A stretch of 64,000 nt of DNA from Ornithinimicrobium avium (GCF_003351765.1 NZ_CP031229.1:2376916-2440915); one strand, 5' to 3'; positions 39,121 through 56,691 are shown, counted from the first letter of the stretch. Made by a program: numbers and translations. The notes: a model not told the origin generated them from the sequence alone.

Positions 39121-39192
39121 GCAGGCAGGGTGGCCTCTGATCCTGGGGCTCTGCAAGAACTCCCACCCGACCGCCCGATACACGCGAGGAGG

Positions 39193-39208
39193 GTGCGTCA
39201 TTCCGCCC
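39193..39208 (+). repeat. Island motif copy a (GTGCGTCATTCCGCCC, degenerate) at the left island boundary
   Basis: Read directly. Followed by the direct repeat TTCCGCCCAcTATGGG / TTCCGCCCAgAATGGG. Confidence 0.6.
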
Positions 39209-39396
39209 ACTATGGGACGCGTCCTTCCGCCCAGAATGGGCTAAGAACGACCTCGCCGAGGACAGCTAGGAATGGGTCCACATTAGGCGGAGGCTCCAAC
39301 GTTCACATTCCGAGGCAGCCCCCGGGACGCCTGCGACCAAGTGCCGTCAGTCGATTAAAGTTCCCGAATTCCTAACTCGAAAGAACAATGAGAAAT

Positions 39397-39417
39397 GTTG
39401 TCGTCAAGCACGACAAC
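39397..39417 (-). terminator. Hairpin GTTGTCGT-caagc-ACGACAAC downstream of the minus-strand gene ending at 39460
   Basis: Perfect 8-bp stem with 5-nt loop in an AT-rich stretch about 45 nt past the stop. Confidence 0.5.
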
Positions 39418-39459
39418 GGCCCCCCCAAACCACCGGAGGGCAGTCGTCCTCTCAGTTGG

Positions 39460-40410
39460 TCAGCCGAGCGTAGTCAGCAGTCTGCCCAAGGCCTCCGCGA
39501 TCGCGATCCCGCCAGATGAGCCGAGCGCGGCCACCGCCGCGCCGGACGCGTTCTCCGCGAGTCGCCTGATCACACCCGGGTCGCGAGGGCCGTTCGCCTC
39601 CGCCTCGATTTCGTCCAGACTCTCAACTACCTTCGCACGGGCTGTCGCGTCATACTCCGGGTTGGCATCTAGCAAGGCCCGCACCGCTTGGACGTCGGCC
39701 AGAACTTGCTGCCTCTGGTCGTTGCTGATCGGAGCGACCATTACATTCTGATCGCCGATCTGAACGTTCCCGCCATGGTTCGTGAACGAGCCATGTACTC
39801 CGCTGCGCTGGTCGTACGTCACCGACGATGAACCCGAGAACAGCGAACCGGTCAGCGACACGTCAGGCCTACCAAGGACTACTCGACCCTTCGGTTCCAG
39901 CCTGGTTCGCACGAAGTCCTGCTGGGCGCTGTGGAACCCGTGGATATACCCCTGAGATTCGAGGACTTTCATGCACGTTTCGCGTTCCTGCTCCGTGACT
40001 TCCGGTAGCCCGGGCATGTGCAGGTTCCATGAAGCGACCTCGGTCCACGTGACGTCCTGGCCCTTCTCGGCCATGTGGCGCAGGATCTCACGAGCCGTGT
40101 GGTCGTAGCGGTCCTGACCGGTCGCCTGCGATTCCTGCAGTTCCCTCACAACCGTCCTCCCCATCGCCGTTGGTTGGTGACCGCCACTCATCCGGCCGCT
40201 TGACCGGAGAAGACCGAGGGCCTCAAGGTCTCTCGTGTGCTCCATCACGTCGCGAGTACCGAGCCCCACCGACTTCCCTGCAGATTCGGTAGAAACGTAC
40301 TCGTTAGGTTCGTCTCCCGGGTTGTCGCCCACGGCTTCAGCTACGGCTGCCAGCAACTTGAACTGGTCGGTGCCCCTAAGCCGTGCTTTCAAAGCAGTCT
40401 TATCCATCAT
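39460..40410 (-). CDS. Hypothetical protein, possibly two tandem winged-helix-like domains plus a C-terminal domain
   Basis: Low-GC ORF. Preferred start MMDKTALKARL at 40410 with a GAAGG RBS. The longest ORF extends to 40509. Confidence 0.5.
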   Translation of the reverse strand: MMDKTALKARLRGTDQFKLLAAVAEAVGDNPGDEPNEYVSTESAGKSVGLGTRDVMEHTRDLEALGLLRSSGRMSGGHQPTAMGRTVVRELQESQATGQDRYDHTAREILRHMAEKGQDVTWTEVASWNLHMPGLPEVTEQERETCMKVLESQGYIHGFHSAQQDFVRTRLEPKGRVVLGRPDVSLTGSLFSGSSSVTYDQRSGVHGSFTNHGGNVQIGDQNVMVAPISNDQRQQVLADVQAVRALLDANPEYDATARAKVVESLDEIEAEANGPRDPGVIRRLAENASGAAVAALGSSGGIAIAEALGRLLTTLG

Positions 40411-40531
40411 TCTCGCCTTCTCGCTCGCCGCCGGAACATGGATATCGGTCGGCGGCCCTCCCGATGTTGTCAAACGGTAGTCTTGCGGACCGACACACCC
40501 CCAGGGCACGGTCTCGGGCGACTCGTCATCG

Positions 40532-40550
40532 GTGCGTCATTCCGCCGCGA
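40532..40550 (+). repeat. Island motif copy b GTGCGTCATTCCGCCGCGA
   Basis: Read directly. Confidence 0.8.
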
Positions 40551-40693
40551 CTAACTGCTCTTCCCCATTGCAGCCAGTTTGGGTCCGCCTGCTCGGCCGT
40601 TGCGAGCGAAGCAGGAATTGGTCCGCGTAGCAGCTTGCCTTGTGGGGGCGACCGGTGATGGACGGTGGCCCTCTGCCACACTCAAAGTGGCGT

Positions 40694-41554
40694 TCAGTGC
40701 TCGAGCCCAGACGTTCTAACGAAGTTCGCTATCGCGATTCCATAAAGGCAGAACGCTAGCCCTGCGGCTACTAGGAAGATCAAGGACAATGAGTCGACTC
40801 TTCCAAACTCAGGGAAGGTCTCCAGTGCCGACGGTACTGGAGAAAGAATATAGGCACAGATAACGAACCCACCGGTCGTAACGCCGCACATGCGAAGGCG
40901 CCGCAAGAGAGTGCGCTCCCTTACACTAGGTGGAGTCTTCCAGGTTCGAACCACGCGAGTGCTGCCGCGGCATCCGAGCCAAACGACAACGAAGACATAC
41001 AAGGAGGTCGGGACGATCGATCTCTCGATCCCGTAGGCGTTGAGTGCGAACACTGTGAATACGGATACCTCGTAGGCAGCGAAAGCGACGAGTGCCATGA
41101 ATACCTCAGCCAGAAGTCGGTCAGAGCCAAATGTCGGCGTCCTTCCCATCGCTTCAAGCGCACCAGCGAAGAGGGCTAACGCCCCAGCCGCCATTAATAT
41201 AACCGCCATGGCCCCGACTGCGCTGCTTCGCGCTACTGCTCGAGAGAGCAGGTCTGAGTCCTGAGACTCCCGTGCAAATTCGCCAAGGTCACTGAGGCTA
41301 GGATGCCCAGTTAGGCCGCCCCAGATGATGGCGGCGAGTATCAAGAAGACGCAGGCCATTAGCAGGAGTTTGAGGACCTGCGCGATTCTCGTCTTGTCGC
41401 CTTCGGTAGAGTTGGGGGCAGCCTTCCAGGACCGCTCAGCAATAATCGACATCAGCACCAAGATGATGCTTGCCAGGACGCCAGATAGCGTACTGTGGGC
41501 AGTTGCTGCCTCGGTGACATCCCATCCCATCAGGCAAGTGTAGTGCCCGCACAT
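40694..41554 (-). CDS. Hypothetical integral membrane protein (6-7 TM)
   Basis: 286-aa hydrophobic ORF in the low-GC region. Confidence 0.5.
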   Translation of the reverse strand: MCGHYTCLMGWDVTEAATAHSTLSGVLASIILVLMSIIAERSWKAAPNSTEGDKTRIAQVLKLLLMACVFLILAAIIWGGLTGHPSLSDLGEFARESQDSDLLSRAVARSSAVGAMAVILMAAGALALFAGALEAMGRTPTFGSDRLLAEVFMALVAFAAYEVSVFTVFALNAYGIERSIVPTSLYVFVVVWLGCRGSTRVVRTWKTPPSVRERTLLRRLRMCGVTTGGFVICAYILSPVPSALETFPEFGRVDSLSLIFLVAAGLAFCLYGIAIANFVRTSGLEH

Positions 41555-41670
41555 GGGCTGCCGTCCTAGCGCGTATCAGTTCGTTGTGTCAATCAGCGAC
41601 TTAAGTTCCGTGCCACACCCACGCGCCGTGCGGTGTCAGGCCCGAATGAGCACCCGCCACCGAACTTCGG

Positions 41671-41688
41671 CGTGTCATTTCGCCGCAA
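41671..41688 (+). repeat. Island motif copy c CGTGTCATTTCGCCGCAAG
   Basis: Read directly. Confidence 0.7.
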
Positions 41689-41975
41689 GTGGCATGCGTG
41701 GCCGGTCGAGGGGGACCAGCCGATGCTGTCCTCTCGTGCACGTGCAGGCCAACGGTCGACGCTCGGGTGGCAGGGCTTGTCGGAGCCCGTCTCTAGCATC
41801 TCGGCATGGCTCAATGCACAGCGCCCGTCGACGGTCACCGCACGGCAAGCCTCCCGGCAAGCGGCCGCACCTGCCGCAGGCGTCGCTCTTACTGCCGCCC
41901 CACCTACCCCAACGCCACTCGGCGCCTGTTTGCGGCACTAAGCGTTGAAGAATCATTTGCGTTGCGGGAGAGGGT

Positions 41976-42554
41976 ATGGTAAAGCGCGCGTGGGGCAGTT
42001 GGAGGGAGGCTTCCCGCCTGTGGGACGCGTATCTATTGCGTGTTGGGCAATGGAGACTGCTACCGAAGCTCGCGGGCGTTGCAGTTGGCGACCTCGTGCT
42101 CAGCGTGTTGCTTGCCCGCCTTTCCTTTCTCCTTTGCCTACTCTTGGGCCTTCCTATGGTGTGGTTCGAGACGATCGTCAAGTTCATCGCCTTCACGGGG
42201 GCAATCGCTTTCGCTGTAGGTCTCGGCTCAATCTGCTGGATCGGCCTGAGGGACCTCGGGCTCAAGATTGGTGGTGTCGGCGCCTTGGCGATTGCAGTCG
42301 TGAACTTCTATGTGCTGAACTATGTTATCGACTATCAAGAGTGGATTTTGACTCAGGTCTCACGGGCGAGCCCGGATCCAGGTGGTTTTGCCGAGGGCAT
42401 TGACTGGGCCAATCCTTACGCTCGCTGGTACGTCGGAGTTGTTGCCCTGCTGGGAACTTTGATTGGATTCGTCTTCAAGATTAGGAACGCCTACGGACTG
42501 CTGCGCCACGGAGAGAAGCATAAGCAATCACCGACATGGAGCCGCCTCCAGTAG
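41976..42554 (+). CDS. Hypothetical integral membrane protein (4-5 TM)
   Basis: 192-aa hydrophobic ORF. Confidence 0.5.
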   Translation: MVKRAWGSWREASRLWDAYLLRVGQWRLLPKLAGVAVGDLVLSVLLARLSFLLCLLLGLPMVWFETIVKFIAFTGAIAFAVGLGSICWIGLRDLGLKIGGVGALAIAVVNFYVLNYVIDYQEWILTQVSRASPDPGGFAEGIDWANPYARWYVGVVALLGTLIGFVFKIRNAYGLLRHGEKHKQSPTWSRLQ

Positions 42555-42664
42555 GGACCATCCAAGCAAGTACTACGCCAGCTTGGTAACCCATCCGTAA
42601 GCGACCCGGGTGGGCACGTCCTTTTCCCGCGGACTCGCTTGTCGCGAGTCAGCGAGTCCGACCG

Positions 42665-42688
42665 GTGCGTCATTCCGCCGCGAGCGGA
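42665..42688 (+). repeat. Island motif copy d GTGCGTCATTCCGCCGCGAGCGGACG, directly 5' of the conserved integrase leader (42697-42786)
   Basis: Read directly. Confidence 0.8.
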
Positions 42689-42786
42689 CGCGGAGTCGGG
42701 CGCCGTAGCGTCGTTGGGGTCAGTGCCTCGTCGCGCTGGCGGCGGGCGTCGACAGTGGCCCTACGAGGTCGCCGCAGGAGGCGACC

Positions 42787-43710
42787 ATGTCCACCACGAC
42801 CAGCTCCACCGCGGCACTGCCGTTCCAGCCGTCCTCGATGAGCCCTGCGCAACTGGCAGCGGTCTCGTTCTTGGCTCGCTACTCCGGAGCGACTCACGCC
42901 CTGTACCGGGCACATCTGGGTCGCTGGTTCGCCTGGTGCGAGACCAACGCGTTGGACCCGTTGGTCGGGATACAGCGTGCGCACGTCGAGCTCTACATCC
43001 GTGACCTCGGGGACGCCGGCCTGATGGACTCCTCGGTGAACACGATGATGCACGCCGTGCGCGGGTACTTCCGGTTCGCGCACATCGACGGCACCATCCC
43101 CGCCGACCCGGCCGTGTACGCCCGGCTCCCGAAGGTCCACCGGGACGAGTCGCGCACCCAGGGCCTGGACCGGCTGGAGCTGATCCGCTTCCTCCAGGTC
43201 GCCCAGACGATCTCCGTCCACCACGGCGCGCTGGCCTACCTGCTCGGGATCAACGCCCTGCGCGCCTCCGAGGCCGCGGCCGTTCGCATCGAGGACTACA
43301 CCGACGTCCTGCGCGGCCACCGGGTGCTGCACCTGGTTGGCAAGGGCAACAAGCCCGCCACCATGCCGCTGACCGTTCCCGTCCTGCGGGTCCTGGAGGC
43401 CTGCCGCGGTGAGCGCACCACCGGGCCGCTGATCCTGCGACCGCTCTCCGGGAGACCGATCGACCGTCGTGACGTCTACCGGATGGTGCAGCGCATCGCG
43501 AGGAGCGCGCGGATCCCCAGGCACATCAGCCCCCACTCGCTACGGCACGCCGCCATCACCAACGCCCTGGACGCCGGCGTGCCCCTGCGCGACGCCCAGA
43601 TCCTCGCCCGTCACGCTGACCCCAGAACCACCGAGCACTACGACCGAGCCCGCGGCAACCTCGACCGCCACGGCGTCCACTTCCTCACCGCCTACGTCGC
43701 CGGCGTATAG
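42787..43710 (+). CDS. Tyrosine recombinase/integrase (XerD-like, 307 aa), copy 1
   Basis: N-terminal SAM-like core-binding domain. C-terminal catalytic R...HSLRHA...ARHADPRTTEHYD (R-H-R-Y). About 98% identical to the copy at 47742. Confidence 0.85.
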   Translation: MSTTTSSTAALPFQPSSMSPAQLAAVSFLARYSGATHALYRAHLGRWFAWCETNALDPLVGIQRAHVELYIRDLGDAGLMDSSVNTMMHAVRGYFRFAHIDGTIPADPAVYARLPKVHRDESRTQGLDRLELIRFLQVAQTISVHHGALAYLLGINALRASEAAAVRIEDYTDVLRGHRVLHLVGKGNKPATMPLTVPVLRVLEACRGERTTGPLILRPLSGRPIDRRDVYRMVQRIARSARIPRHISPHSLRHAAITNALDAGVPLRDAQILARHADPRTTEHYDRARGNLDRHGVHFLTAYVAGV

Positions 43711-43872
43711 GTACGCGGCCGACTACGTCAGATCCGCCCAGGATGATGTACCTGCGTGTGGGGCCTCAGGGGTCATCACAGGCCGCAGGTGACCAGCGCG
43801 TAGGCACCTGGGTTGGCGTGCAGGGAGAGGTGCGAGGAAACCCCGACTACTCTACGAAAGGATTATCTTACA

Positions 43873-44082
43873 TGAGAGCCGTCAACACCAGCACATTCCG
43901 CAGGAAACACGCCGATCAGATCACCGCTATGTCAGGAGTCCTGGGGGCAGCCGCCGAACCCCACGGCTCGGACAAGGAGTCGGCAGGGGCCGAGCGTTCG
44001 GCTACCTGTTGTGTCGCCCCGTATTGTCAATGGCCAAGAAGCCGACGTCAGGGTCCGGGTCTGGCCCTGTCCAGTCCTTGAT
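43873..44082 (+). CDS. Possible small Cys-containing ORF (69 aa)
   Basis: AAAGGA RBS 9 nt upstream of the ATG. Overlaps the 3' end of the antisense EF-hand pseudogene. Weak. Confidence 0.2.
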
Positions 44083-44306
44083 ACAGATCACCCCGTCCCC
44101 GTTCTTGTCGATGGTGTCAAAGAATCCCGGATTGTAAAGAATCCCGGATTGTCCGGGTTCACCAAGGTGGTGTTTTCCACCCACGGGCCCAGGCACTGTC
44201 CCCCCGCGGGAGGCACGGCCAAAGCGGTAACCGGTCCTACAGCGCCCAAGCCCAATGCAATCGCGACACATCCAAGAGCGCGGCGAGTGCGGTAATGACG
44301 ATCCAT
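44002..44306 (-). pseudogene. Secreted EF-hand calcium-binding protein gene inactivated by a 17-bp tandem duplication
   Basis: ATG 44306 with GGGAGG RBS. Signal peptide MDRHYRTRRALGCVAIALGLGAVGPVTALA. Frame breaks at the duplication, after which DTIDKNGDGVICIKDW (a DxNxDG loop) continues in another frame. NPGFF is encoded twice. Confidence 0.7.
44119..44152. repeat. Perfect 17-bp tandem duplication AAAGAATCCCGGATTGT x2
   Basis: Read directly. 17 is not a multiple of 3, so it causes a frameshift. Confidence 0.9.
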
Positions 44307-44763
44307 GACGACCTCCCTGTAAGCACGAAAGTGGGTCACCTCAGTGTTCTGCGGCCCTGCTCGCATGTCAACAGGCGGATCACAGCGGACGCCCGCCTCT
44401 GCCGCCGGTCGGTCGTTTCGGCGTGCGTCAATCCGCCGCATAGGGACGCGTCTTGGCGCCCGGACTGTGTGCTCCCTCCGTATCCAACGGAACCTCTGGC
44501 TCGCAGAAAACGCGCCGGTCGCCAACCTCGTCCCAGACAGGTGGAGCACCTGACCGCCCTCGCCCCTCCCTGACCCATCAGCGCTCATCCTGTCCCGACC
44601 AGCTAGCACACCGCCTGGGACCATGGAAAACTGACGTCGCGGAAGGCCGTCCGGAACTCTGTCCTACCCCAGTGCCAGAACTACCCCCCGACATCTCCTG
44701 CAACGCCGTCACACCACGGCCGACGGCGACCCACGAAAGAACGAGGATGGGCAATCTATTCAG

Positions 44764-45936
44764 CTAGTTTAGCGGTCGATTGCCGATCTTATCATGGATC
44801 GCGTCCTCATTCTCCATGTAAATTTGAGCTATGTCGCCGTCACCATTCGGCGCACCTAAGTAGTTTTGATTTATGGCGTTGGCCATCGAGTCGCTAGTAA
44901 AGGGCACTTCTAGTGGGTACAACATGAAGCGATTATCGACCGAAAATTCGGCGGTGAGTAGTTCACTGGTCGCACCATCGATGTAGTGGAGCGTGATGTC
45001 GTCATGTCGATTTCGCTCATCAGGGAAGAAATTGATCTGAGCGCCAAGGACAACGCTGTCAGCCGGCAAGGCGTCAGCCGTGGCGATCATCTGCCGGAGA
45101 CCAGCGTGGTCGAGCGCCGACGGACAGTCGAATTCATCCTCACAAAGTGTGCGGTCTTCGCCTGTCTCTGCCATGCCCCGTATCAGATAGGTACCCATAG
45201 CATCGAATATCCTTTGTGATTCTGGCATTACCCGATCGATATCTATGCCTAGCTCATCCTTGTTGACGAGATAGACGTTTAGGACGGCAGTGATATTTTC
45301 ACCAGCTGCCACCGCGATTTCAACCGATTCCGTCCCCCCACCAGGGGTCTCTAAGTCAGCCAGCCACGTGTTGTCTTCACGATCTATCAAGTCGGCGTGG
45401 TGGGCAAGAGGCGTCGATGCGCCCCTCTCGACCAGGAAGTTTTCGACATAATTACGCCCTGCTTCCGGTGCGGAACCTAGTATCCAATCGTGGTCCAGGC
45501 CCGCGTAGAAGGCTCGCATCTGGCTGATGTCCCCACCGTCATGAAAGTACGGCACCCGTTCAGTTGCAAATCTGAAGTCGACAGCTGCCGGCTCAGTATC
45601 GCTGGCTGTTGGGTCAACCACCTCTCCACCGGCCGGGCTGGGCGGGTCGATTTCGACAGGGGCGCTTGGCTGGACCCCAGCCGACGCGGTTGATACAGGT
45701 GGGGTTTGCTCGGCTCCGGGCTCGGTCTCGCCGTCGCCCAGGGTTGAGCCGACGAGTACGCCTCCACCCAGCAGCACCACTCCCGCCGCGACTCCGCCGA
45801 TTAATTTACTCCGGCTCTTTCGCTTGGCCTCCGCCTCACGCATGCGCGCAAGTTCGGCCCCTTCTTCGTCCACCACGTCGTGCTCCCTCAGTCCACGGAT
45901 GCCGGGATCGTACAACAACCCGCGTCGCGCCCGCAC
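44764..45936 (-). CDS. Hypothetical single-pass membrane-anchored protein with a large extracytoplasmic domain
   Basis: 390 aa, about 50% GC. Lys/Arg-rich N-terminus, TM helix LIGGVAAGVVLLGGGVLVG. Confidence 0.5.
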   Translation of the reverse strand: MRARRGLLYDPGIRGLREHDVVDEEGAELARMREAEAKRKSRSKLIGGVAAGVVLLGGGVLVGSTLGDGETEPGAEQTPPVSTASAGVQPSAPVEIDPPSPAGGEVVDPTASDTEPAAVDFRFATERVPYFHDGGDISQMRAFYAGLDHDWILGSAPEAGRNYVENFLVERGASTPLAHHADLIDREDNTWLADLETPGGGTESVEIAVAAGENITAVLNVYLVNKDELGIDIDRVMPESQRIFDAMGTYLIRGMAETGEDRTLCEDEFDCPSALDHAGLRQMIATADALPADSVVLGAQINFFPDERNRHDDITLHYIDGATSELLTAEFSVDNRFMLYPLEVPFTSDSMANAINQNYLGAPNGDGDIAQIYMENEDAIHDKIGNRPLN

Positions 45937-46181
45937 CGGACCGCTCGCGGCACCGAGAGTCCCTCCCGTAATCGATGAGCACCCGGGTTACGTGTTCAGT
46001 GTCTGTGTACTTCATCAGGACCCTCCTGCGCTACAACGTCGCTGTAGCCTTCGACGACCCTGATACGACGTTCTTGATGTCGTAGAAGCATTTGCCCGGA
46101 CGAGTGTGCCTTGGTCTCTTGTCTGCCATATCCGGGCTTGCTTCCCACTGAACTCATCGGCATTGGGTCGATCGTTGCGGA

Positions 46182-46207
46182 GTGCGTCATTTCGCCGCGA
46201 GCGGACC
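46182..46207 (+). repeat. Island motif copy e GTGCGTCATTTCGCCGCGAGCGGACC
   Basis: Read directly. Followed by GCGCCGGCGTAGTGGGACTCGG, resembling block 2 of copy d. Confidence 0.8.
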
Positions 46208-46237
46208 TGCGCCGGCGTAGTGGGACTCGGTGGATCG

Positions 46238-46501
46238 TCAGCGACGTTGGTAGATGTCGCGTCTGTGGCCGACGGCCACGACCAGGACGAGAAGGACGTC
46301 GTCGCGGATCTCGTAGATGATGCGGTAGTCGCCAGTGCGAACCCGCCACTCACCGTTTCCACCGACGAGTTTCTTCGCCGCATTGGGCCGGGGTTGGTCC
46401 GCGAGCAGCTCGACCGCTGCCTGCACGCGGCGCCGCGCATCTGGGTTGAGCTTACGCAGCTGGCGCACCGCGGCAGGCGCGACCTCGACGCGATATGTCA
46501 T
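46238..46501 (-). CDS. RelE/ParE-family type II toxin
   Basis: 87 aa: MTYRVEVAPAAVRQLRKL...GEWRVRTGDYRIIYEIRDDVLLVLVVAVGHRRDIY. ATGA overlap with the antitoxin. Confidence 0.8.
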   Translation of the reverse strand: MTYRVEVAPAAVRQLRKLNPDARRRVQAAVELLADQPRPNAAKKLVGGNGEWRVRTGDYRIIYEIRDDVLLVLVVAVGHRRDIYQRR

Positions 46502-46761
46502 GCCAGGCCGAGGTCGGCCTTGACCTGATCCCACGGGATGGCAGTCTCGCCCTCGTCCAGCTCGGCTCGGGCGGCCCGGGCGGCCTCGATGTCGGCAAGG
46601 TCCTCCGCGGCTGCGATCAACCCGTCCAGATCGTTGGCATCGATCACGGCAGCCACCCGCCGGCCACGACGGGTCAGGTAGATCGGGTCGTGCCCGATGC
46701 GGGCGGCATCGACGACATCCGCCAGTCGAGCTCGGGCGTCGCTGACAGTGATCTCTCTCAT
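46498..46761 (-). CDS. Phd/YefM-family type II antitoxin
   Basis: 87 aa: MREITVSDARARLADVVDAARIGHDPIYLTRRGRRVAAVIDANDLD. Confidence 0.8.
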   Translation of the reverse strand: MREITVSDARARLADVVDAARIGHDPIYLTRRGRRVAAVIDANDLDGLIAAAEDLADIEAARAARAELDEGETAIPWDQVKADLGLA

Positions 46762-46884
46762 GGATCAACGGTACCGCATAAACCGCGATTTTGTACAATA
46801 GAGCCTAGTTGGCGCACTTCTGTCGGGTAGGGCAGCACCCCAGCAGCACCCCAGCGTCGCGGCGGGTCACGTCATCAGGAGACC

Positions 46885-46902
46885 GCATCACTTCGCCGCG
46901 AG
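46885..46902 (+). repeat. Island motif copy f GCATCACTTCGCCGCGAG
   Basis: Read directly. Confidence 0.7.
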
Positions 46903-46952
46903 TAGGTATGGACGGTAGCGGCCCCGGAGAGGAAGTCCAGCTCGCCGTGGCC

Positions 46953-47558
46953 TCAGTGGCTCCGGCCAGCTTTGGCGGGGCAGTGCTCGACGCCGACTCC
47001 TCCCGGCCTCCAGGTGATTCCGGTGATCGAGCGCAGCGGCGCGAACGGGTCGCATGCTCGTGGCCAGGCCACCGGCAGGCTGGCCGAGATCTCTGTTGCC
47101 TCGCCCGGGGAGGCCCGAACGGCCAACCGGCGCAACGCCTCTACGTCAGTGAGCTTGACCGTGACACTCCAGGTCGCCGTCCCGTGGTCGACGGAGTCGC
47201 CGCCCTTGGCCTCGCTCTCCACCGACAGGATCCGCAAGGCGCCGGCCTCCACCGCCTCCTCCAGCCCATCGCTGGGCCAGATCAGCCAGGCAAGGGCATC
47301 GAAGACGTCATCGTCGGGCGCGGCATCCGGTGCCTCACGCTCGGCCTCCTCGACGCCGAGGTCACCGCCCGAGGCGGCGATCACGACGCCCTCGTTCGAC
47401 CGCGCCGCGGCCTGCAGGGCAGAAGCATCAGTGATGGTGACCTCTGCGGTGGCGGTCAGTTGCCACACCTGCCGGTTCTTCCCGCGCTGCGGTGGCTGGG
47501 GAGGGACCTGCGGCTGGTGGTCGGGCAGCTGAAAGAGACCTGGCTGGTCGGCATCCAT
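46953..47558 (-). CDS. Conserved hypothetical protein 'geneX' (201 aa), divergently paired with integrase copy 2
   Basis: ATG 47558 (MDADQPGLFQLPD...). An about 85%-identical paralogue is fragmented at 53342-53861 and 55313-55406. The listed 610-aa ORF is extended by the antisense of the integrase. Confidence 0.6.
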   Translation of the reverse strand: MDADQPGLFQLPDHQPQVPPQPPQRGKNRQVWQLTATAEVTITDASALQAAARSNEGVVIAASGGDLGVEEAEREAPDAAPDDDVFDALAWLIWPSDGLEEAVEAGALRILSVESEAKGGDSVDHGTATWSVTVKLTDVEALRRLAVRASPGEATEISASLPVAWPRACDPFAPLRSITGITWRPGGVGVEHCPAKAGRSH

Positions 47559-47741
47559 GCCGACCGACCCTATGCCCCTCAGCTCCGCTGGTCCGATGTC
47601 TGACGGAAGGTCGCGCGCTCCGTCGCACGTCTCATCGCCGGGCGGGTCCAGTGTTCGGCGTAGCGTCGTTGGGGTCAGTGCCTCGTCGCGCTGGCGGCGG
47701 GCGTCGACAGTGGCGCAACGAGGTCGCCGCAGGAGGCGACC

Positions 47742-48665
47742 ATGTCCACCACGTCCAGCTCCGAGACGATCCTGCCGTTCCAGCCGTCCTCGATGAGTGC
47801 CGCGCAGCTGGCAGCGGTCTCGTTCCTGGCGCGGTATTCCGGGGCCACGCATGCCCTGTACCGGGCGCAACTGGGTCGCTGGTTCGCCTGGTGCGGGACC
47901 AACGGGTTGGACCCGTTGGTCGGGATACAGCGAGCCCACGTCGAGCTCTACATCCGTGACCTCGGGGACGCCGGCCTGATGGACTCCTCGGTGAACACGA
48001 TGATGCACGCCGTCCGGGGCTACTTCCGGTTCGCCCACATCGACGGCACCATCCCCGCCGACCCGGCCGTGTACGCCCGGCTCCCGAAGGTCCACCGGGA
48101 CGAGTCGCGCACTCAGGGCCTGGACCGGCTGGAGCTGATCCGTTTCCTGCAGGTTGCTCAGACGATCTCCGTCCACCACGGCGCGCTGGCCTACCTGCTC
48201 GGGGTCAACGCGCTGCGTGCCTCCGAGGCCGCGGCGGTGCGGATCGAGGACTACACCGACGTGCTGCGAGGCCACCGGGTGCTGCACCTGGTTGGCAAGG
48301 GCAACAAGCCCGCCACCATGCCGCTGACCGTTCCCGTCCTGCGGGTCCTGGAGGCCTGCCGCGGTGAGCGCACCACCGGGCCGCTGATCCTGCGACCGCT
48401 CTCCGGGAGACCGATCGACCGTCGTGACGTCTACCGGATGGTGCAGCGCATCGCGAGGAGCGCGAGTATCCCCAGGCACATCAGCCCCCACTCGCTTCGG
48501 CACGCTGCCATCACCAACGCCCTGGACGCCGGCGTGCCCCTGCGCGACGCCCAGATCCTCGCCCGGCACGCTGACCCCAGAACCACCGAGCACTACGACC
48601 GAGCCCGCGGCAACCTCGACCGGCACGGCGTCCACTTCCTCACCGCCTACGTCGCCGGCGTATAG
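47742..48665 (+). CDS. Tyrosine recombinase/integrase (XerD-like, 307 aa), copy 2
   Basis: Near-identical to copy 1, including the 97-bp upstream leader (47645-47741). Confidence 0.85.
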   Translation: MSTTSSSETILPFQPSSMSAAQLAAVSFLARYSGATHALYRAQLGRWFAWCGTNGLDPLVGIQRAHVELYIRDLGDAGLMDSSVNTMMHAVRGYFRFAHIDGTIPADPAVYARLPKVHRDESRTQGLDRLELIRFLQVAQTISVHHGALAYLLGVNALRASEAAAVRIEDYTDVLRGHRVLHLVGKGNKPATMPLTVPVLRVLEACRGERTTGPLILRPLSGRPIDRRDVYRMVQRIARSASIPRHISPHSLRHAAITNALDAGVPLRDAQILARHADPRTTEHYDRARGNLDRHGVHFLTAYVAGV

Positions 48666-48711
48666 TCGGGCTGCCACGTCAGTTCCGCCCAGATAGACGC
48701 GCGCTTCGCTG

Positions 48712-49380
48712 CTATTGCTCAGCGCGTTGTCCGGGGGAGATGAATCCTGACTCGTAGGCGAAGATGACTGCTTGCACGCGGTCACGCACTCCGAGCTTGG
48801 CGAAGAGCCGGTTGATGTGTGTCTTCACCGTGGCTTCGGACACGAACATCACGCGGGCTATGTCGGCGTTCGAGCGGCCGTTGGCCAGGTGCTCGAACAC
48901 CTGTCGCTCCCGCTCGGTGAGCTCAGCGAGTCCGGGTGCTGTTTCGCCGGGGCGTGGTTTGGCCATGAACTGGCGCATCAGCTGCCTGGTCACGTCGGGA
49001 GCGATCAGCTCCGTCCCTGCGGCGACGGACCGTACCGCGTGGACGAGGTCACCGGCGGTCGTGGTCTTCAGGAGGAAGCCCGACGCGCCTGCGTGGAAGG
49101 CGTCCCAGACGTTCTCATCGGCCCCGTAGGTCGTCAGCACGATGACCCGTCCGGTCCAGTGCCGGTCGGAACAGATCCGACGGGTTGCCTCGACGCCGTC
49201 CAGCAGCGGCATCCTGATGTCCATCAGGACGACGTCCGGAGTCAGTCGAAGGGTCTGCTCGACAGCATCGACCCCGTCCTCCGCTGCGCCGACGACCTGG
49301 CAATCGGGTTGAGAGTCGAGGATTGCCTGGAACCCTTCGCGCACGAGTGCCTGGTCATCCACGACGAGGACGCGAATCAT
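48712..49380 (-). CDS. NarL/LuxR-family two-component response regulator
   Basis: Receiver domain (VLVVDDQALVREG...VLMDIRMP) and LuxR HTH (LTERERQVFEHLANGRSNADIA). Confidence 0.85.
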   Translation of the reverse strand: MIRVLVVDDQALVREGFQAILDSQPDCQVVGAAEDGVDAVEQTLRLTPDVVLMDIRMPLLDGVEATRRICSDRHWTGRVIVLTTYGADENVWDAFHAGASGFLLKTTTAGDLVHAVRSVAAGTELIAPDVTRQLMRQFMAKPRPGETAPGLAELTERERQVFEHLANGRSNADIARVMFVSEATVKTHINRLFAKLGVRDRVQAVIFAYESGFISPGQRAEQ

Positions 49381-50651
49381 GACTCACCCACGTGATGCTC
49401 CAAGGGGAACCGGCCCCGGACGACCCAGCTGCCATCCGGCAAGCGTGGTCCGGCTTCGAGTGTCCCGCCATAGAGCCGGGCACGTTCGCTCATGCCGATG
49501 ATCCCGAAGCCAGGACTCTCCGGGCGCTGGGGACGACCGCCTCCGTCGTCGATGATCTCCACCTGTAGGGCGACGGGGGTGTAGGTGATGATCACCTCGC
49601 AGCGGCTCCGGCTCGCGTGCTTGCGCACGTTGGTGAGTGATTCCTGGACGATCCGGAAGATCGAGAGAGCCAACCCGCGCGGCAGCTCACGAGGTGTGCC
49701 CTGGACGCTCAGGCTCACCGAGTGACCCACGGCCTGCTCGGCGGCGATGAGCTCGTGCACGTCATCGAGGGCCGGTTGAGGTCGGCGTCCGGCAGTCTCG
49801 CCTCCGCGCATCAGCCCCAACATGTGGCGCATCTCGAGCATCGCTTCAGCACCTGTCGCCTGGACCTCGTGCATGGCCTTACGAGCAGCCTCGGGTGAGT
49901 AGTCAATCAGCTCGGCGGCAGCAGCTGCCTGCACGACCATCGCAGAGAGGCCGTGAGAGACGATGTCATGAAGCTCTCGGGCGATGCGCTCTCGTTCGTC
50001 GTCGGCCGCCCGTCTCGTCCGGCGCTGCGCGCTGGCGACCGCCTCCGCCTCCGCGCCGGCGCGCGCGCGGACCAGGACACCAGCGATCCACGGACCAGTG
50101 ATGAGGAGCAGACCGAAACCGTAGTCGGAGCCGCCCACGCCTGTGGCCGCGATCGCAACCGAGACCAGCGTGGTGCCGATCGCGAGGCCGATGGCCGAGG
50201 CTTTCCGATCGAGGTGCGCGCCGACGGAATAGGCGGCGACGAGGATGAACGGGATCGTCATCAGCTGGGCGTTGACGGCGACGCCGAGGAATGACTGGAC
50301 GGTCAGCGCCAGCAGGACGAGCGTGAGGCACGTGCGCGGGCGCAGCCGCCGTATTATCAGCGCAGCGGTCATGACCAGCAGGGACAGGTTCGCGACCAAC
50401 GCGTGGCCGGGGACCGCCCCGAGCGTCACCTCGACCAGGCCAGCGAGTCCGATGACTCCCGCGAGCAGGATGTCCTCTCGACGCTCCGCACCCATCGTCC
50501 GGACCGACGAGCTGACGGAGTGGACGTCGAGCCCATCACCGACCCACCGCATGCCCATCAGCGTCTCAGGTACCGCCGCGGGATGCATCCACCTTGCGGC
50601 CAGCTCCCTCAACCTGCGGATGGAACAGGCTCCGCGATTTCTTGGAGCCAA
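49377..50651 (-). CDS. Sensor histidine kinase (HisKA_3/NarX-DesK type) with multi-TM sensor
   Basis: H-box ELHDIVSHGLS. HATPase region. ATGA overlap with the regulator. The exact start is uncertain (50651 is the longest ORF). Confidence 0.75.
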   Translation of the reverse strand: MAPRNRGACSIRRLRELAARWMHPAAVPETLMGMRWVGDGLDVHSVSSSVRTMGAERREDILLAGVIGLAGLVEVTLGAVPGHALVANLSLLVMTAALIIRRLRPRTCLTLVLLALTVQSFLGVAVNAQLMTIPFILVAAYSVGAHLDRKASAIGLAIGTTLVSVAIAATGVGGSDYGFGLLLITGPWIAGVLVRARAGAEAEAVASAQRRTRRAADDERERIARELHDIVSHGLSAMVVQAAAAAELIDYSPEAARKAMHEVQATGAEAMLEMRHMLGLMRGGETAGRRPQPALDDVHELIAAEQAVGHSVSLSVQGTPRELPRGLALSIFRIVQESLTNVRKHASRSRCEVIITYTPVALQVEIIDDGGGRPQRPESPGFGIIGMSERARLYGGTLEAGPRLPDGSWVVRGRFPLEHHVGES

Positions 50652-50743
50652 GAGCTACCGAAACTGCCTCTGCGGCCGACGCGCGAGCCAGCGAGAACGG
50701 ATGGACTTACCGGGTCCGATTCCGTCAATGAGGAGCCAAACCC

Positions 50744-51457
50744 ATGCGCAACGAACCACAGGCGTTGTCCGCAACAAGTCCAGTCGACACACACGCCTCA
50801 CACGCCCATCGCATCGTCACGGCAGCGGCGCTCGCCGGCTCCGCCATGCTCGTTGGCATCGGCGGACTCATCGCGCCGCCGAACGACGGGCAGGCAACTG
50901 GCCTGTACGACGTGGCGTCCTCGGCCCCCGGCCGCCTGACGGTCGAGGCCGTCGTACTCGTCATCTCATCCATCCTGCTCGTCGTCGGCGTGATCGGCGC
51001 CGCGCGGGTGGTCCGCGGCCGCGGGAGGCGGCTGGCCTGGGCCGCCGCCCTCTTCGGGGTGATGGGCGCCCTCGGCCACGTCGCCTACGCCACCTTCTCC
51101 CTCATCACGATCCAGGTCGTAGACGCAGCACCAGACCGCGCCGCGGCAATCGAGACTCTTGACAGTATCAACGGCGATGCGGCGATCGGACTGCTCGTGA
51201 TGCCGCTGGTCGTGGCGTACGGGCTGTCGGTGATCCTGCTCCCGATCGCCTTCTACCGTCGCCGGCTGGTGCCACTCTGGGTCGTCGGACTCGCCGGCGT
51301 GGCGTTCGTCCTCGAGGTGGTAGCCCCCGGCGGCGTCCTCGCGGTCCTCGGTCTAAAGTACGCACTCGGGGCGGCGGCAGGCCTGGCCCTAGGCTGGCGG
51401 ATCACACAGCTCTCCAACTCGGAATGGCGCAACCCAGAAACCATCGACCTAACCTGA
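50744..51457 (+). CDS. Hypothetical integral membrane protein (6 TM), divergent from the two-component system
   Basis: 237-aa hydrophobic ORF. Confidence 0.5.
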   Translation: MRNEPQALSATSPVDTHASHAHRIVTAAALAGSAMLVGIGGLIAPPNDGQATGLYDVASSAPGRLTVEAVVLVISSILLVVGVIGAARVVRGRGRRLAWAAALFGVMGALGHVAYATFSLITIQVVDAAPDRAAAIETLDSINGDAAIGLLVMPLVVAYGLSVILLPIAFYRRRLVPLWVVGLAGVAFVLEVVAPGGVLAVLGLKYALGAAAGLALGWRITQLSNSEWRNPETIDLT

Positions 51458-51587
51458 CCCGACACCGTCGCGGCGGACGCGCGTCACCAGGCGGGCCACA
51501 AGGAACCCTCGGGTCGGGATGGCCAACTGCACCCCGCTTCGCCCGTGCTGGTTAGTCACGAAACCCCTTGCACGCCGCAGCCGACAA

Positions 51588-51608
51588 GCGCGTCACTTCG
51601 CCGCGAGC
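51588..51608 (+). repeat. Island motif copy g GCGCGTCACTTCGCCGCGAGC
   Basis: Read directly. Confidence 0.75.
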
Positions 51609-51676
51609 CGGGCGCTTTTACTCGCGTCGTGGGTAGCAGTTGGAGGGCGAGCCGCCGTGTAGACGGAATCATCTAC

Positions 51677-51892
51677 ATGGCGTACCGTTGCCACATGGCC
51701 GAGACGACGACGATACGCATCAGCCGGGACACCCACGCCCGGGTCACCCGCTTGGCGGCCGAGCGCCACGAGACGATCGACGAGTTGGTGAGCAGCGCTC
51801 TGAGAGCGCTGCGCCAAGACGGCATGGGCCGCGACCTGTCCGAAGATCTCACTGAGGATGAGACGGCCTGGCTCGATGCTGACGCCGGGTGA
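51677..51892 (+). CDS. Ribbon-helix-helix (MazE/CopG-like) antitoxin
   Basis: TTIRISRDTHARVTRLAAERHETIDELVSSAL. Start at 51677 or 51695. 17-nt overlap with the toxin gene. Confidence 0.65.
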   Translation: MAYRCHMAETTTIRISRDTHARVTRLAAERHETIDELVSSALRALRQDGMGRDLSEDLTEDETAWLDADAG

Positions 51893-52214
51893 CGTCGTCG
51901 AGCTCGACCTCGGCACTCCGGCCGGTAGCGAGGCGGGGCTACATCGTCCCGCGGTCGTCGTCACTGCCGCACGGGTGCTGGCGGGTGGACCGAACGTCGT
52001 GCAGGTAGTGCCGCTGACCCGCACCATCCGGTCCAGCAGCACCGAAGTGGTCATCGACCCTGATCACGGCAACCGTCTTGCAGAGCGTTCCTCGGCGCAG
52101 TGCCAGCACGTGCGATCTGTGGCCACCTCGCGTATCCAGCACCGCACCGGAAATGTCGGCCCCGTAGTACTCGGCGAGGTCCGAGAGACCCTCGCGCTGC
52201 TGCTGGACCTCTAA
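51876..52214 (+). CDS. MazF/PemK-family endoribonuclease toxin
   Basis: MLTPGDVVELDLGTPAGSEAGLHRPAVVVTA...VQVVPLTRTIR. Confidence 0.75.
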   Translation: MLTPGDVVELDLGTPAGSEAGLHRPAVVVTAARVLAGGPNVVQVVPLTRTIRSSSTEVVIDPDHGNRLAERSSAQCQHVRSVATSRIQHRTGNVGPVVLGEVRETLALLLDL

Positions 52215-52265
52215 CGTCCCTCGGCGCGGGCCCTCGACGAGAGTCCAGCGCTTCGACGTAGCCCC

Positions 52266-52280
52266 TTCCGCCGCGTTTCG
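52266..52280 (+). repeat. Degenerate island motif copy h (CCTTCCGCCGCGTTT), preceded by block 2 GCGCTTCGACGTAGC
   Basis: Read directly. The block order is reversed relative to copies d and e. Confidence 0.45.
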
Positions 52281-52381
52281 CCATTTGTAGGCCTTGTCGA
52301 AGTCCGTCTAGACCTCGAGAAGTTGGATGTTGGACTCGCTTGATCGGTCACTGTTGGAGAGGGCTTGGCTACGAGGGTTGG

Positions 52382-52684
52382 TCAGCCCCAGAAGATGTGG
52401 GTGGGGTCGCGGTCTATCTCGTCTAGGAGGGACTCGATGGTGCGTGCGGACCCGACCCGGTCGTACAGGTGGAAGCGGAGGTTGCGGTCCCTCCAGTACA
52501 AGGTCCAGGCCTTGTCCTTTGCGGTGTATCGCAGGCGCGCGATGGGCAGGCTCGTCCATTCGGGTCCGAAGTCCTCGCGCCAGGGCGCGCGCCGCTCGAC
52601 GATGGTCAGGTGTCGGTCGCTCTGGAACGGCCACCGGTCAGGCTCCGTTGCTGCCGGCTGCGGCGTTGAGCGCTTCGAAGGCAA
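52382..52684 (-). CDS. Small hypothetical protein (DUF3024-like?)
   Basis: 100 aa: WTLYWRDRNLRFHLYD. Confidence 0.4.
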   Translation of the reverse strand: MPSKRSTPQPAATEPDRWPFQSDRHLTIVERRAPWREDFGPEWTSLPIARLRYTAKDKAWTLYWRDRNLRFHLYDRVGSARTIESLLDEIDRDPTHIFWG

Positions 52685-53222
52685 CGTCGAGTCGCCGCTG
52701 GCGACGCATGTCAGTTTCGTGGTTGGCTTCGGCTGCGAGGGACCCGATGAGTTCCTCCAGTCCGTCTTCGGTGGCAGGCAGGACGACCTTGCCGGTGGCG
52801 TGAGGATGGATCCGGAACACCAACCGTTGAGAGTCGACGTCGAGCAGGTTCAGTTCGCGCAGCGTCGCTGCCACCTCGGTGGGGATGAGGATCTGGTGGA
52901 CGGGCTCGGCGCGAGCGAGCCGTCGCGGTCGCAGGTCGAACGGTGAATCGGCCCAGTTACTGATGCGGCCCTGGTCTGCGCAGCTGCTGCACTGCCAACG
53001 GATCGGAACCGAGACGTCGAGGTCGCGGTGCAGAACCATCCGGCCCGGGCAGGCACGGTGGCCGGGGCGGCGGCGACATGGCAGCGCGCTCTCCCAAGCT
53101 GTACCCGCGTCGCCTGCGGTGGCCGCGCTGACGAGGTCGCCCAGCTGCTCGGCAAGCCGGCGTGCGGGGCCTGGTGCATCCAGGGGCAGGTCGAGGAAGT
53201 GCTGCAGATCGGTGACCATCAT
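52638..53222 (-). CDS. Hypothetical Cys-rich protein
   Basis: 194 aa. CRRRPGHRACPGR...WQCSSCADQGR is a possible Zn ribbon. 47-nt overlap with the downstream ORF. Confidence 0.4.
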   Translation of the reverse strand: MMVTDLQHFLDLPLDAPGPARRLAEQLGDLVSAATAGDAGTAWESALPCRRRPGHRACPGRMVLHRDLDVSVPIRWQCSSCADQGRISNWADSPFDLRPRRLARAEPVHQILIPTEVAATLRELNLLDVDSQRLVFRIHPHATGKVVLPATEDGLEELIGSLAAEANHETDMRRQRRLDVAFEALNAAAGSNGA

Positions 53223-53341
53223 CGCCCCGGAACTGTACCTGCCGCCAGGGCTGGGCTACGGCTCGGTGTACACCCGCGTCACCGCCGCGAGAAGACCTGG
53301 AGGGTTGCGGTCCCACCGGATGGAGCCAGCTCTGCGTGGCT

Positions 53342-55406: not shown

Positions 55407-55600
55407 GGCGACCCACCCTATGCCCGTCATCCCACTGGTTTGATGTCTGGCGGGCACGGTCGCGCGGGCGCGTCATAGCGTGCTCATCGCCGGAGGCGAT
55501 GCTTGTGCGCTTCGACGTAGCGTCGAAGTCGTTCAGAGCCTCGTCGCGCTAGCCGCGGGCACCGCTGAGGCCCCAGTCCAGGTCGCCGCAGGAGGCGACC

Positions 55601-56161
55601 ACGTCCACCACGACCACCTCAAGGACGGTGCCGCCGTTCCAGCCGTCCTCGATGAGCCGCACGGCTCGCGGCGGTCTCGTTCCTGGCCCGGTACTCCGGG
55701 GCCACGCATAACGCATGCCCTGTCAACACGATGATGCACGCCGTCCGGGGCTACTTCCGGTTCGCGCACATCGACGGCACCATCCCGGCCGACCCGGCCG
55801 TGTACGCCCGGCTCCCGAGAGTCCAGCGGGACAAGTCCCGCACCCAGGGCCGGGCCTGGACCGGCTGGAGCTGATCCGCTTCCTTCAGGTCGCCCAGACC
55901 ATCGTCCACCACGGCGCACTGGCCTACCTGCTCGGGATCAAATCACTGCGCGTCTCCGAGGCCGCAGCCGTGCGCCTCGAGGACTACACCGACGTCCTGC
56001 GGGGCCACCCGGTGCTGCACCTGCTCGGCAAGGGCAACAGGCCGCGCCACGATGCCGCTAATGGTCCCAGTCTTGCGGGTCCTCGAAGTCCGCCGCAGGG
56101 GAGCGCACCACAGGCCCGCTGATCCTGCGCTCGCTCTCTGTGCTATGGCACGCCGCCATCA
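55601..56161 (+). pseudogene. Tyrosine recombinase copy 3, decayed (start ATG to ACG, internal ~140-bp deletion, frameshifts, 3' truncation by IS110 fragment)
   Basis: Leader and coding sequence align to copies 1 and 2 (LDRLELIRFLQVAQTI-VHHGALAYLLGI...). The start reads gcgaccACGtccacc. Confidence 0.75.
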
Positions 56162-56690
56162 CTAACGCCCTGGACGCAGGTCATCGTGGCCGAGACCGGC
56201 GCGGACATGTCCCGCTTCCCTTCCGCCGCGCACCTGGCCTCCTGGGTCGGGATCGCCCCCGGCGTGTACGAGTCCGCGGGCAAGACCCGTCCGGCCGGCA
56301 CCCGGCACGGCAACAAGTGGCTCTGCGCGATGCTCGTCGAGGCCGCCGGATCGGTGGCGCGAGGGCACGGGAAGAACTACCTCGCCGCGCAGCACACCCG
56401 CCTGGCCAAACGCCGCGGCCGGGGCAGAAGCCAGGTCGCGGTCGCGCACTCGTTCCTGGTGTCGGCCTACCACATGCTCATCAACGACGAGCCCTACCGC
56501 GACCTCGGCGCTCACTGGGTGTCGCGCCGGACCCAGGAAGCCCACACCCGCCGCCTCGCCGCACAGCTGGAACGGCTCGGTCATATGGTCGTCATCGACC
56601 CAGCCGCCTGACCCTCCGGTCCGGAACGACGTGCCGGTCTCCGCCCGCGCCCTCACGGGCACGCCTCGGCCGGGTTATTCACGGGTCTGT
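56162..56690 (+). mobile_element. IS110-family fragment (3' half; transposase C-terminal 141 codons at 56186..56611) in opposite orientation to the first copy
   Basis: AETGADMSRFPSAAHLASWVGIAPGVYESAG... is about 85% identical to the first copy. It shares the terminal sequence CCCGGGTTATTCACGGGTCTGT. Confidence 0.7.
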
Positions 56691-56691
56691 G

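Follow-up and report, generated by a model that had tools for sequence, protein, structure and literature searches.

A directional intergenic motif in a genomic island of Ornithinimicrobium avium as the probable core recombination site of an adjacent Xer-like integrase

Introduction

What is the function of a short motif, here designated M, that recurs on one strand between the genes of a genomic island in Ornithinimicrobium avium? The island (approximately 39.1–59 kb) has a GC content of 0.59–0.70, compared with 0.70–0.78 in its flanks, and lies in a stretch of 64,000 nt (NZ_CP031229.1:2376916-2440915) that is referred to as the window throughout; coordinates are counted from its first letter, and comparison loci carry L numbers. 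The original prediction, made from the window sequence, held that M resembles either the repeated attachment (att) cores of accreted integrative elements or an integron-like cassette array more than a promoter motif. This preference was supported by the linkage of M to an integrase and its strand lock in other genomes, by relatedness boundaries that fall inside M, and by the lack of any promoter or terminator consensus at its copies. M is probably the core recombination site of the adjacent Xer-like integrase, and the island would then be an integron-like cassette array that was built by accretion and uses classical core-type sites.

Results

Motif M recurs in one orientation in the island

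Scanning the window with GYGCGTCAYTYCGCCGCGAG, allowing up to three mismatches, gave six matches (40532, 41670, 42665, 46182, 46883, and 51588), all on the plus strand, compared with a mean of 0.35 and a maximum of 2 in dinucleotide-preserving shuffles. This comparison confirmed the six copies listed in the original prediction, the positions of which were right to 1–2 nt. A shorter core of M added 39195, 39219, and 44425. To guard against circularity, an nhmmer profile was trained solely on copies from other genomes; it recovered eight window copies with E < 0.05, all on the plus strand and spanning 39192–51612, namely the six pattern matches plus 44422 (E = 0.007) and 39192 (E = 0.03), the last of which upholds a degenerate copy that had been proposed at 39193. 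A ninth, weaker copy with a 2-nt deletion was found at 53273 (E = 1.2), and the profile detected no significant M elsewhere in the 64 kb, outside the island. Chance is therefore excluded as the source of the window copies. A scrambled copy proposed at 52266 was not significant alone (E = 13), although it keeps CTTCCGCCGCG and lies in the expected gap. Copies at 44423 and 53273, degenerate ones at 47625 and 55468, and sites of a second type, M′, at 43725 and 48676 were absent from the original prediction. All window copies are located in gaps between gene units, and its claims of a purely intergenic placement in the island and of a single orientation thus both held.

Linkage of M and the integrase in other genomes

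Scanning 596 Gb of prokaryotic DNA, with each species represented by one genome, for the exact pattern yielded at least 120 stretches. Among the matches listed, single matches were spread over numerous phyla, in line with chance expectation for an 18-mer in a collection of this size, while loci with at least two copies came nearly all from Actinomycetota, with arrays in Terrabacter, Lapillicoccus, Ornithinibacter, Ornithinicoccus, Nocardioides, Micrococcales, and many soil metagenome-assembled genomes (MAGs); in all 29 of 29 array loci the copies of a locus shared one strand. Five of these 8-kb array blocks encode a protein that is 85–90% identical to the window integrase. The two matches in L019 from the beta-proteobacterium Viridibacterium curvum (2902 and 4064, minus strand) lie in two repeat copies with near-identical flanks, approximately 1.16 kb apart, and are chance matches inside a repeat that are unrelated to the actinobacterial arrays.

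Five genomic loci were then picked via integrase homologues (two from Nocardioides and one each from Pedococcus bigeumensis, Flexivirga endophytica, and a MAG). They contained 33 copies at a position weight matrix (PWM) score of at least 8, 32 of which were on the integrase strand and 32 outside called genes, many of them 30–140 nt past the stop codon of an opposite-strand gene; by our own count, about 27 genes run opposite to the M strand and 17 along it. A further sample consisted of 80 metagenomic loci (578,772 bp) chosen for encoding the integrase alone and oriented with the integrase on the plus strand. At a PWM score of at least 12, the integrase strand carried 157 copies and the opposite strand 2. 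Of the 70 loci with enough upstream sequence, 46 had a copy before the integrase match, in 44 cases at 112–160 bp, the typical integrase-proximal M being located approximately 125 bp upstream of the integrase ATG. The median distance from copy to copy was 1,187 bp (interquartile range 706–2,472). An integrase relative was encoded in 546 of 600 metagenome candidate stretches among the matches listed.

Relatedness between loci switches inside M

To describe where related loci diverge, the 20-mer was numbered G1 T2 G3 C4 G5 T6 C7 w8 y9 w10 y11 C12 G13 C14 C15 G16 C17 s18 w19 g20. L165/L169 and L174 are 98.6% identical over 6.4 kb starting from position 12 (CGCCGCCTG...), while their left arms, ATGCGTCTCAA and GTGAGTCCTTC, and all DNA upstream are unrelated. 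The same switch at the left boundary of the integrase cassette was observed between L142/L155 and L187/L188 (96.6%), and six further loci have the centre, the right arm, and the leader in common in six unrelated left contexts. Switches also occur in the other direction: L158 and L179 share 93% identity as far as position 15 and no relatedness beyond it, and L200 and L203 (98%) diverge just past the site 3′ of the integrase.

Passenger cassettes without an integrase showed the same behavior. In L146 and L172, the two copies of a 570-bp cassette match at 94% identity between position 12 of one M and position 16 of the following M; their flanks are unrelated, and the cassette occupies a different place relative to the integrase in each locus. 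Likewise, a cassette with a gene for 91 amino acids that is common to L062 and L125 (78%) has M on both sides in both loci and unrelated neighbors. Cassette boundaries in other genomes thus match M to the nucleotide, as the original prediction required.

When high-scoring segment pairs with identities of 96% or more were considered, 9 of their 24 internal ends were located inside M in both partners, compared with an expectation of about 1%. Only this high-identity subset is informative, since the statistic over the ends of all segment pairs is swamped by integrase alignments that fade at approximately 80% identity. The breakpoints place the exchange point between positions 11 and 16, in the invariant CGCC(G), which is 99% conserved. 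The finding that relatedness switches inside M, for the integrase gene as well as for passengers, indicates that M acts as a duplex crossover site and not as a promoter or an attC hairpin.

Anatomy of the sites

The consensus of M is sTGCGTCwywyCGCCGCswg, with a left arm TGCGTC conserved at 88–97% and a centre CGCCGC at 93–99%; positions 8–11 are A/T- and pyrimidine-rich, and positions 21–26 are weakly conserved as ySGGCC. The imperfect palindrome CCGC-GA-GCGG that the original prediction saw in the motif was not conserved, positions 18 and 19 being S and W across sites. The integrase-proximal M has a good inverted right arm, for example GCGTC-ATTCCGCCGCCTGCG-GACGC. The idea of a strong two-arm palindrome at every site was dropped and is kept only for the integrase-proximal M and for M′.

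M′ is located past the integrase stop codon, at a distance of 3–41 nt in most loci. Its consensus is GCGTCGACTCCGCCCAGAATGACGC, with the layout GCGTC-N15-GACGC and a CGCCCA centre. A short form within 110 nt of the integrase stop was present in 49 of 83 distinct loci compared with 7% of random windows, and the full dyad form after the stop in 33 of the 83 compared with 0.95%. The two sites at 39193 and 39219 also have a CGCCCA centre, which is what an M left arm joined to an M′ right half would be expected to look like, as after excision of an integrase cassette.

An upstream module A (CGCTCATGCCGCGATCCGCGCG, at −16 to −45) is present at approximately 7% of sites and a downstream module B (ACCGGATCTGCCGATGAGCGG, at +25 to +60) at approximately 7%, with only 2 sites having both. 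The modules are rough inverted copies of each other with a non-complementary GCCG centre and are 20–30 times over background (e.g., L041, L062, L073, L122, L125, L135, L158, and L159). They may be accessory binding sites or may mark a cassette subfamily.

The integrase

The integrase (307 amino acids) consists of two domains, PF02899 (SAM-like, core-binding) and PF00589 (Phage_integrase), without an arm-binding domain. It aligns colinearly with XerD (1a0p) with no inserted domain, and the catalytic R, K, HxxR, H, and Y are all there (LRASE, GKGNK, HSLRHA, RHAD, and EHY), so that, judged from its sequence, the enzyme looks active. The best family matches were XerC (101 vs. 335 bits) and XerD (88 vs. 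330), both far under the cutoff, and the integron-integrase models failed (TIGR02249, 45 vs. 265 bits; NF011946, 19 vs. 435), only the last ~60 residues matching. The predicted protein is thus a simple Xer-like tyrosine recombinase and not an IntI. The nearest solved structures are a XerC-like protein, XerD, and the integrase of phage Brujita (gp33, 5vfz).

Searching the protein collection at E ≤ 1e-20 yielded more than 4,600 relatives. Those ranked in the top 120 show 85–97% identity and come from different genera, namely Ornithinimicrobium avium (97%), Nocardioides, Flexivirga, Pedococcus, a Nanopelagicales MAG, and a MAG labeled Chloroflexota, which points to horizontal spread. The single copy and vertical descent typical of XerC and XerD were not found, as the window carries three copies in a span of 14 kb. 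No homologue was encoded on any of 72,556 plasmids. Arthrobacter and Gordonia phages, 109 in total, encode integrases that are 51–53% identical. The possibility that M is a phage attP was rejected, as these phage homologues have no M nearby. In the phage genomes inspected (Seahorse, L206, an Arthrobacter phage; AbbyDaisy, L207), a second, larger tyrosine integrase is encoded a few genes away, and no M is located near either integrase.

Upstream of the gene, a second conserved block noted in the original prediction proved to be real: CGTAGCG forms the start of a conserved integrase leader at 42704 and 47659, at 55516 in the decayed third copy, and as a relic at 46214. Each integrase ATG is directly preceded by a perfect 7-bp hairpin (GGTCGCC-GCAGGAG-GCGACC), with a Shine-Dalgarno-like GGAGG spanning its loop and 3′ arm. 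The position of this hairpin over the putative ribosome-binding site (RBS) suggests translational control of the integrase.

Gene map and cargo of the island

The features of the island are compiled in Table 1. Its gene units are on the minus strand in eight cases and on the plus strand in three. The left-end sites start 73 bp past the thiolase stop codon, and the site at 40532 is also present, with the same neighbor, in L212. A 95% homologue of the 317-amino-acid protein was found in the same context as in the window.

Table 1. Coordinates of sites and genes in and next to the island (window positions).
Feature	Position	Strand	Sequence or remarks
Thiolase	37936-39120	+	
Two overlapping CGCCCA-centre (M′/attB-like) sites	39193..39240	+	GTGCGTCATTCCGCCCACTATGGGACGC then GCGTCCTTCCGCCCAGAATGGG; array left end
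317/349-aa gene	39460-40509	-	
M site	40532..40551	+	GTGCGTCATTCCGCCGCGAC; E=7e-5; between 317/349-aa gene (-) and 286-aa membrane gene (-)
286-aa membrane gene	40694-41554	-	
M site	41670..41689	+	GCGTGTCATTTCGCCGCAAG; E=1e-3
192-aa membrane gene	41976-42554	+	
Integrase-proximal M, both arms	42665..42693	+	GTGCGTC-ATTCCGCCGCGAGCG-GACGCGG; E=7e-6; 122 bp before int1 ATG
Conserved integrase leader	42694..42786	+	includes CGTAGCGTCGTTGGGG at 42704
RBS hairpin	42767-42786		
int1	42787-43710	+	307-aa Xer-like tyrosine recombinase, full catalytic residues
M′ site after int1 stop	43725..43745	+	ACGTCAGATCCGCCCAGGATG
Small secreted protein	44002-44307	-	
M site	44423..44450	+	GTGCGTCAATCCGCCGCATAGGGACGCG; E=7e-3
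390-aa gene	44764-45936	-	
M site and relic of integrase leader start	46182..46230	+	GTGCGTCATTTCGCCGCGAG then GGCGTAGTGGGACTCGG; M E=2e-6
ParE/Phd	46238-46761	-	
M site	46883..46902	+	CCGCATCACTTCGCCGCGAG; left edge of duplicated geneX-int unit
geneX	46953-47564	-	203 aa, no family match
Decayed M	47625..47649	+	GCACGTCTCATCGCCGGGCGGGTCC; geneX/int2-leader gap; weak nhmmer match (E=4.3), by-eye alignment to 42665
RBS hairpin	47722-47741		
int2	47742-48665	+	307 aa
M′ site with dyad arms	48676..48700	+	ACGTC-AGTTCCGCCCAGATA-GACGC
LuxR-type response regulator and histidine kinase	48712-50651	-	
Membrane protein	50744-51457	+	
M site	51588..51607	+	GCGCGTCACTTCGCCGCGAG; E=2e-6; junction of three-gene module (response regulator, histidine kinase, membrane protein) and MazEF pair
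RHH antitoxin and MazF	51677-52214	+	
Possible decayed site	52258..52281	+	GTAGCCCCTTCCGCCGCGTTTCGC; E=13, by position alone
Two genes without assigned function	52308-53222	-	
M site with 2-nt deletion	53273..53294	+	CCCGCGTCACCGCCGCGAGAAG; E=1.2; left edge of second geneX copy
Second geneX copy	from 53342	-	split by IS110-family element
Decayed site, leader, and int3 pseudogene	55468..56180	+	
Decayed third integrase (int3)	55580-56180	+	frameshifted, cut by IS110-family fragment
RBS hairpin	55581-55600		

The int2 unit is 94% identical to the int1 unit at the nucleotide level, the homology extending from just after the 42665 site (decayed before int2, at 47625) to 43741 and 48692, inside M′. 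The geneX-int unit is duplicated (46883... and 53274...), and its homology starts at −2 of M. On this layout, geneX would be a passenger that became fused to int2 through decay of the intervening site. An IS110-family copy at ~53870–55100 (minus strand) splits the second geneX, and a second IS110 fragment at 56180–56690 (plus strand) truncates int3. Inverted repeats of 28 nt at 53850–53877 and 56664–56691 bound this region, which looks like the product of two insertions followed by a rearrangement.

The two type II toxin-antitoxin pairs, ParE/Phd and MazF with its RHH antitoxin, each form a cassette of approximately 0.7 kb. Toxin-antitoxin cassettes are said to stabilize chromosomal integron arrays similarly. 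The module of LuxR-type regulator, DUF7134/HisKA_3 kinase, and divergent membrane protein (48712–51457) recurs in the unrelated MAG L123 (2776–5681), where it adjoins a member of the integrase family; the regulator and kinase genes are ~67% identical to those of the window at the nucleotide level. Array cargo elsewhere includes toxin-antitoxin genes, TetR/MarR, glyoxalase, DinB, SnoaL, RibD_C, an nSTAND NTPase, a ThiF/JAB set, and many genes of no assigned function.

A tRNA-derived att site was considered and rejected. The sole tRNA call in the window, a 79-nt tRNA-Gly(TCC) reported by ARAGORN at 44601–44679 (minus strand), has no Rfam support, does not overlap M, and is probably false. No known RNA family reached the Rfam gathering threshold in the window.

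Discussion

The explanation that fits these results best is that M is the core att site of the adjacent Xer-like integrase, and we consider it probable. The full site would be approximately 25–30 bp long, with a conserved left arm (G)TGCGTCwywy, an invariant, asymmetric CGCCGC centre, and a right arm that mirrors the left one well at integrase-linked sites (GACGC, 15 nt from GCGTC) and is weak and specific to the cassette elsewhere. We infer that strand exchange by this enzyme would take place in the centre, leaving the left arm with the 5′ DNA and the centre and right arm with the 3′ DNA. Since the asymmetric centre must match between partners, all sites would come to lie in one orientation, which would account for the orientation lock irrespective of gene direction. 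Recombination of two direct copies would excise the interval as a circle with one site, the reverse reaction would insert a circle at any copy, and repeated rounds would produce an array of 0.4–5 kb cassettes (median 1.2 kb) of toxin-antitoxin pairs, regulators, and small enzymes. With M upstream and M′ past the stop codon, the integrase and its leader would themselves be a cassette of ~1.07–1.1 kb, three units of which, one decayed, would be present in the window. Passenger cassettes without an integrase would move in trans.

Several observations weigh against this explanation. Metagenome contigs of ~1.0–1.5 kb with the integrase had no terminal overlaps and no circular signature, and the analysis recovered neither a circular junction nor an empty-site pair. 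The integrase can have arrays on either side, and the orientation of the genes is biased but not uniform. At passenger sites the right arm GACGCAC at +22/23 is weak (mean 2.49 vs. a background of 1.97 ± 0.14), so that sites with two full arms have been demonstrated solely beside the integrase. A simple order of accretion at one attB does not account for the CGCCCA-type site at the far left of the array. The short flanks of 56–61% homologues of the 317-amino-acid cassette protein contain no M. Training of the counting PWM on sites selected by the motif makes the logos partly circular and inflates absolute conservation, although the strand and position statistics are not affected. Finally, many of the comparison loci are metagenome or MAG contigs, in which mis-joining at repeats is possible; the boundary at position 11/12 occurs in many contexts and in isolate genomes and is real whether or not single contigs are chimeric.

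Of the alternatives, a graveyard of independent integrative elements that inserted at one att site and have since lost their integrases, leaving inert cassettes, deserves the most attention. Such a history agrees with the three integrase units of the window, one of them decayed and cut by IS110 copies, with an integrase unit that is bracketed by sites and found in many contexts, and with the inward pushing of older elements at one att site that is known for tycheposons. It sits poorly with the short intervals (median 1.2 kb, many 0.4–0.7 kb), in which tblastn found no integrase remnants, and with integrase-less cassettes that recur in different arrays with both boundaries in M (L146/L172 and L062/L125), which would be hard to obtain by independent decay. 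We regard it as unlikely. It would be very improbable that M is instead a site of the host XerC/XerD, the cassettes being Xer-exploiting modules such as integrative mobile elements exploiting Xer (IMEX) or the pdif modules of Acinetobacter and the integrase being incidental. The integrase does match XerC and XerD best, albeit far under the cutoff, and the site has the size and layout of a Xer site, but M is tied, at a constant spacing of ~125 bp, to a dedicated integrase that has spread horizontally. The centre of M is GC-rich, and many direct copies occur per locus. By comparison, pdif sites alternate in orientation, and dif is a single-copy site with an AT-rich centre.

That M is part of a true integron site, an attC-like element recombined as a folded single strand, is barely credible. 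Read on the other strand, the layout is integron-like, with the integrase followed by ORFs that each have a site, and the inverted modules A/B at ~7% of sites would be able to pair. The integrase nevertheless fails the integron models (45 vs. 265 bits, last 60 residues) and has no extra domain relative to XerD, mean base-pair probabilities over 72 sites revealed no consistent stem involving M, and conservation peaks in the centre rather than in paired R and L boxes. The original wording of an integron-like array is thus borne out by the array layout and not by the integrase or by attC-like hairpins. We attach almost no probability to the reading of M as a regulatory or structural repeat common in acquired DNA, such as an operator, a promoter element, or a repetitive extragenic palindromic (REP)-like sequence. 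M is short, intergenic, and abundant in a low-GC island, as such a repeat would be, yet its strand follows that of the integrase irrespective of the flanking genes, no copy coincides with a promoter or terminator consensus, and the switching of relatedness inside M would be left unexplained.

With M as the probable core site of the integrase, the system can be compared with known ones. As in integrons, a tyrosine recombinase is found beside a one-directional array of ~1-kb, mostly one- or two-gene cassettes that are each delimited by a site and carry toxin-antitoxin pairs, small enzymes, and genes of no assigned function. Unlike in integrons, the integrase is not an IntI and lies inside the array, bracketed by sites and with arrays on either side, and the sites are ~25–30 bp duplex-type cores with a conserved centre instead of folded attC hairpins. 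Integron cassettes contain co-oriented promoterless open reading frames (ORFs) that a common promoter expresses; here, genes are found on both strands, and since they run both ways they presumably have their own promoters. Tycheposons arise by repeated integration at one att site, newer arrivals pushing the older ones and direct att repeats remaining between elements (10.1101/2020.12.28.424599). Direct att repeats and integrase-less units between them are common to accretion systems, including tycheposons, integrative and conjugative elements (ICE) with cis-mobilizable elements (CIME), and the staphylococcal cassette chromosome (SCC), and to the arrays described here, in which direct core repeats flank the units and relatedness breaks within the core. 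CIME and SCC composite islands result from att-site accretion, SCC using serine recombinases. Accreted elements, however, span several kb to tens of kb, usually target tRNA genes or conserved gene ends, and often carry replication or transfer genes, whereas the units here measure ~0.4–5 kb, the autonomous one, which comprises just site and integrase, ~1.1 kb, and use a free-standing 25–30 bp site at varied intergenic loci.

The small modules bounded by Xer-type core sites also recall Xer/dif elements and pdif modules, and the recombinase is Xer-like; those elements rely on the host XerC/XerD, while here a dedicated linked integrase is present and all sites are direct repeats. The R64 shufflon (Rci/sfx) has asymmetric sites with one conserved arm, a conserved spacer, and a poor second arm, and its sites are inverted, leading to inversions in one gene region. 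The asymmetric core is alike, but in the present arrays unrelated cassettes are separated by direct sites. Simple actinophage integrases such as that of Brujita, which lack an arm-binding domain, have the same two-domain architecture; the phage homologues are without M nearby, and no cassette arrays are known for them. A broad classification of tyrosine recombinases does not include such arrays (PMC8138268), and full-text literature searches turned up no published description of this system. We place it among site-specific-recombination cassette arrays, outside the integron family.

In published surveys, Actinobacteria yielded no complete integron, and the reason was called unclear (PMC9024848). 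If the system is real, a widespread and mechanistically different cassette array would fill this gap and would show that the architecture of an array of cassettes can arise from an ordinary Xer-like recombinase. It is conceivable, as a tentative proposal that goes beyond the site assignment, that Actinomycetota possess a second, independently evolved gene-capture platform, in which a ~1.1-kb cassette of site and integrase mobilizes integrase-less, promoter-bearing passengers in trans through ordinary duplex recombination at a 25–30 bp site and the CGCCGC and CGCCCA sites are analogous to attC and attI/attB; if true, this would explain the missing classical integrons in this phylum. On the cassette-array reading, thousands of genes annotated as 'XerC/XerD' or 'integrase' would be re-labeled, and M/M′ would become a signature for hotspots of accessory and defense genes in high-GC Gram-positive bacteria. 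The compact integrase with its directional site of ~25–30 bp is also a candidate tool for genome engineering in actinomycetes.

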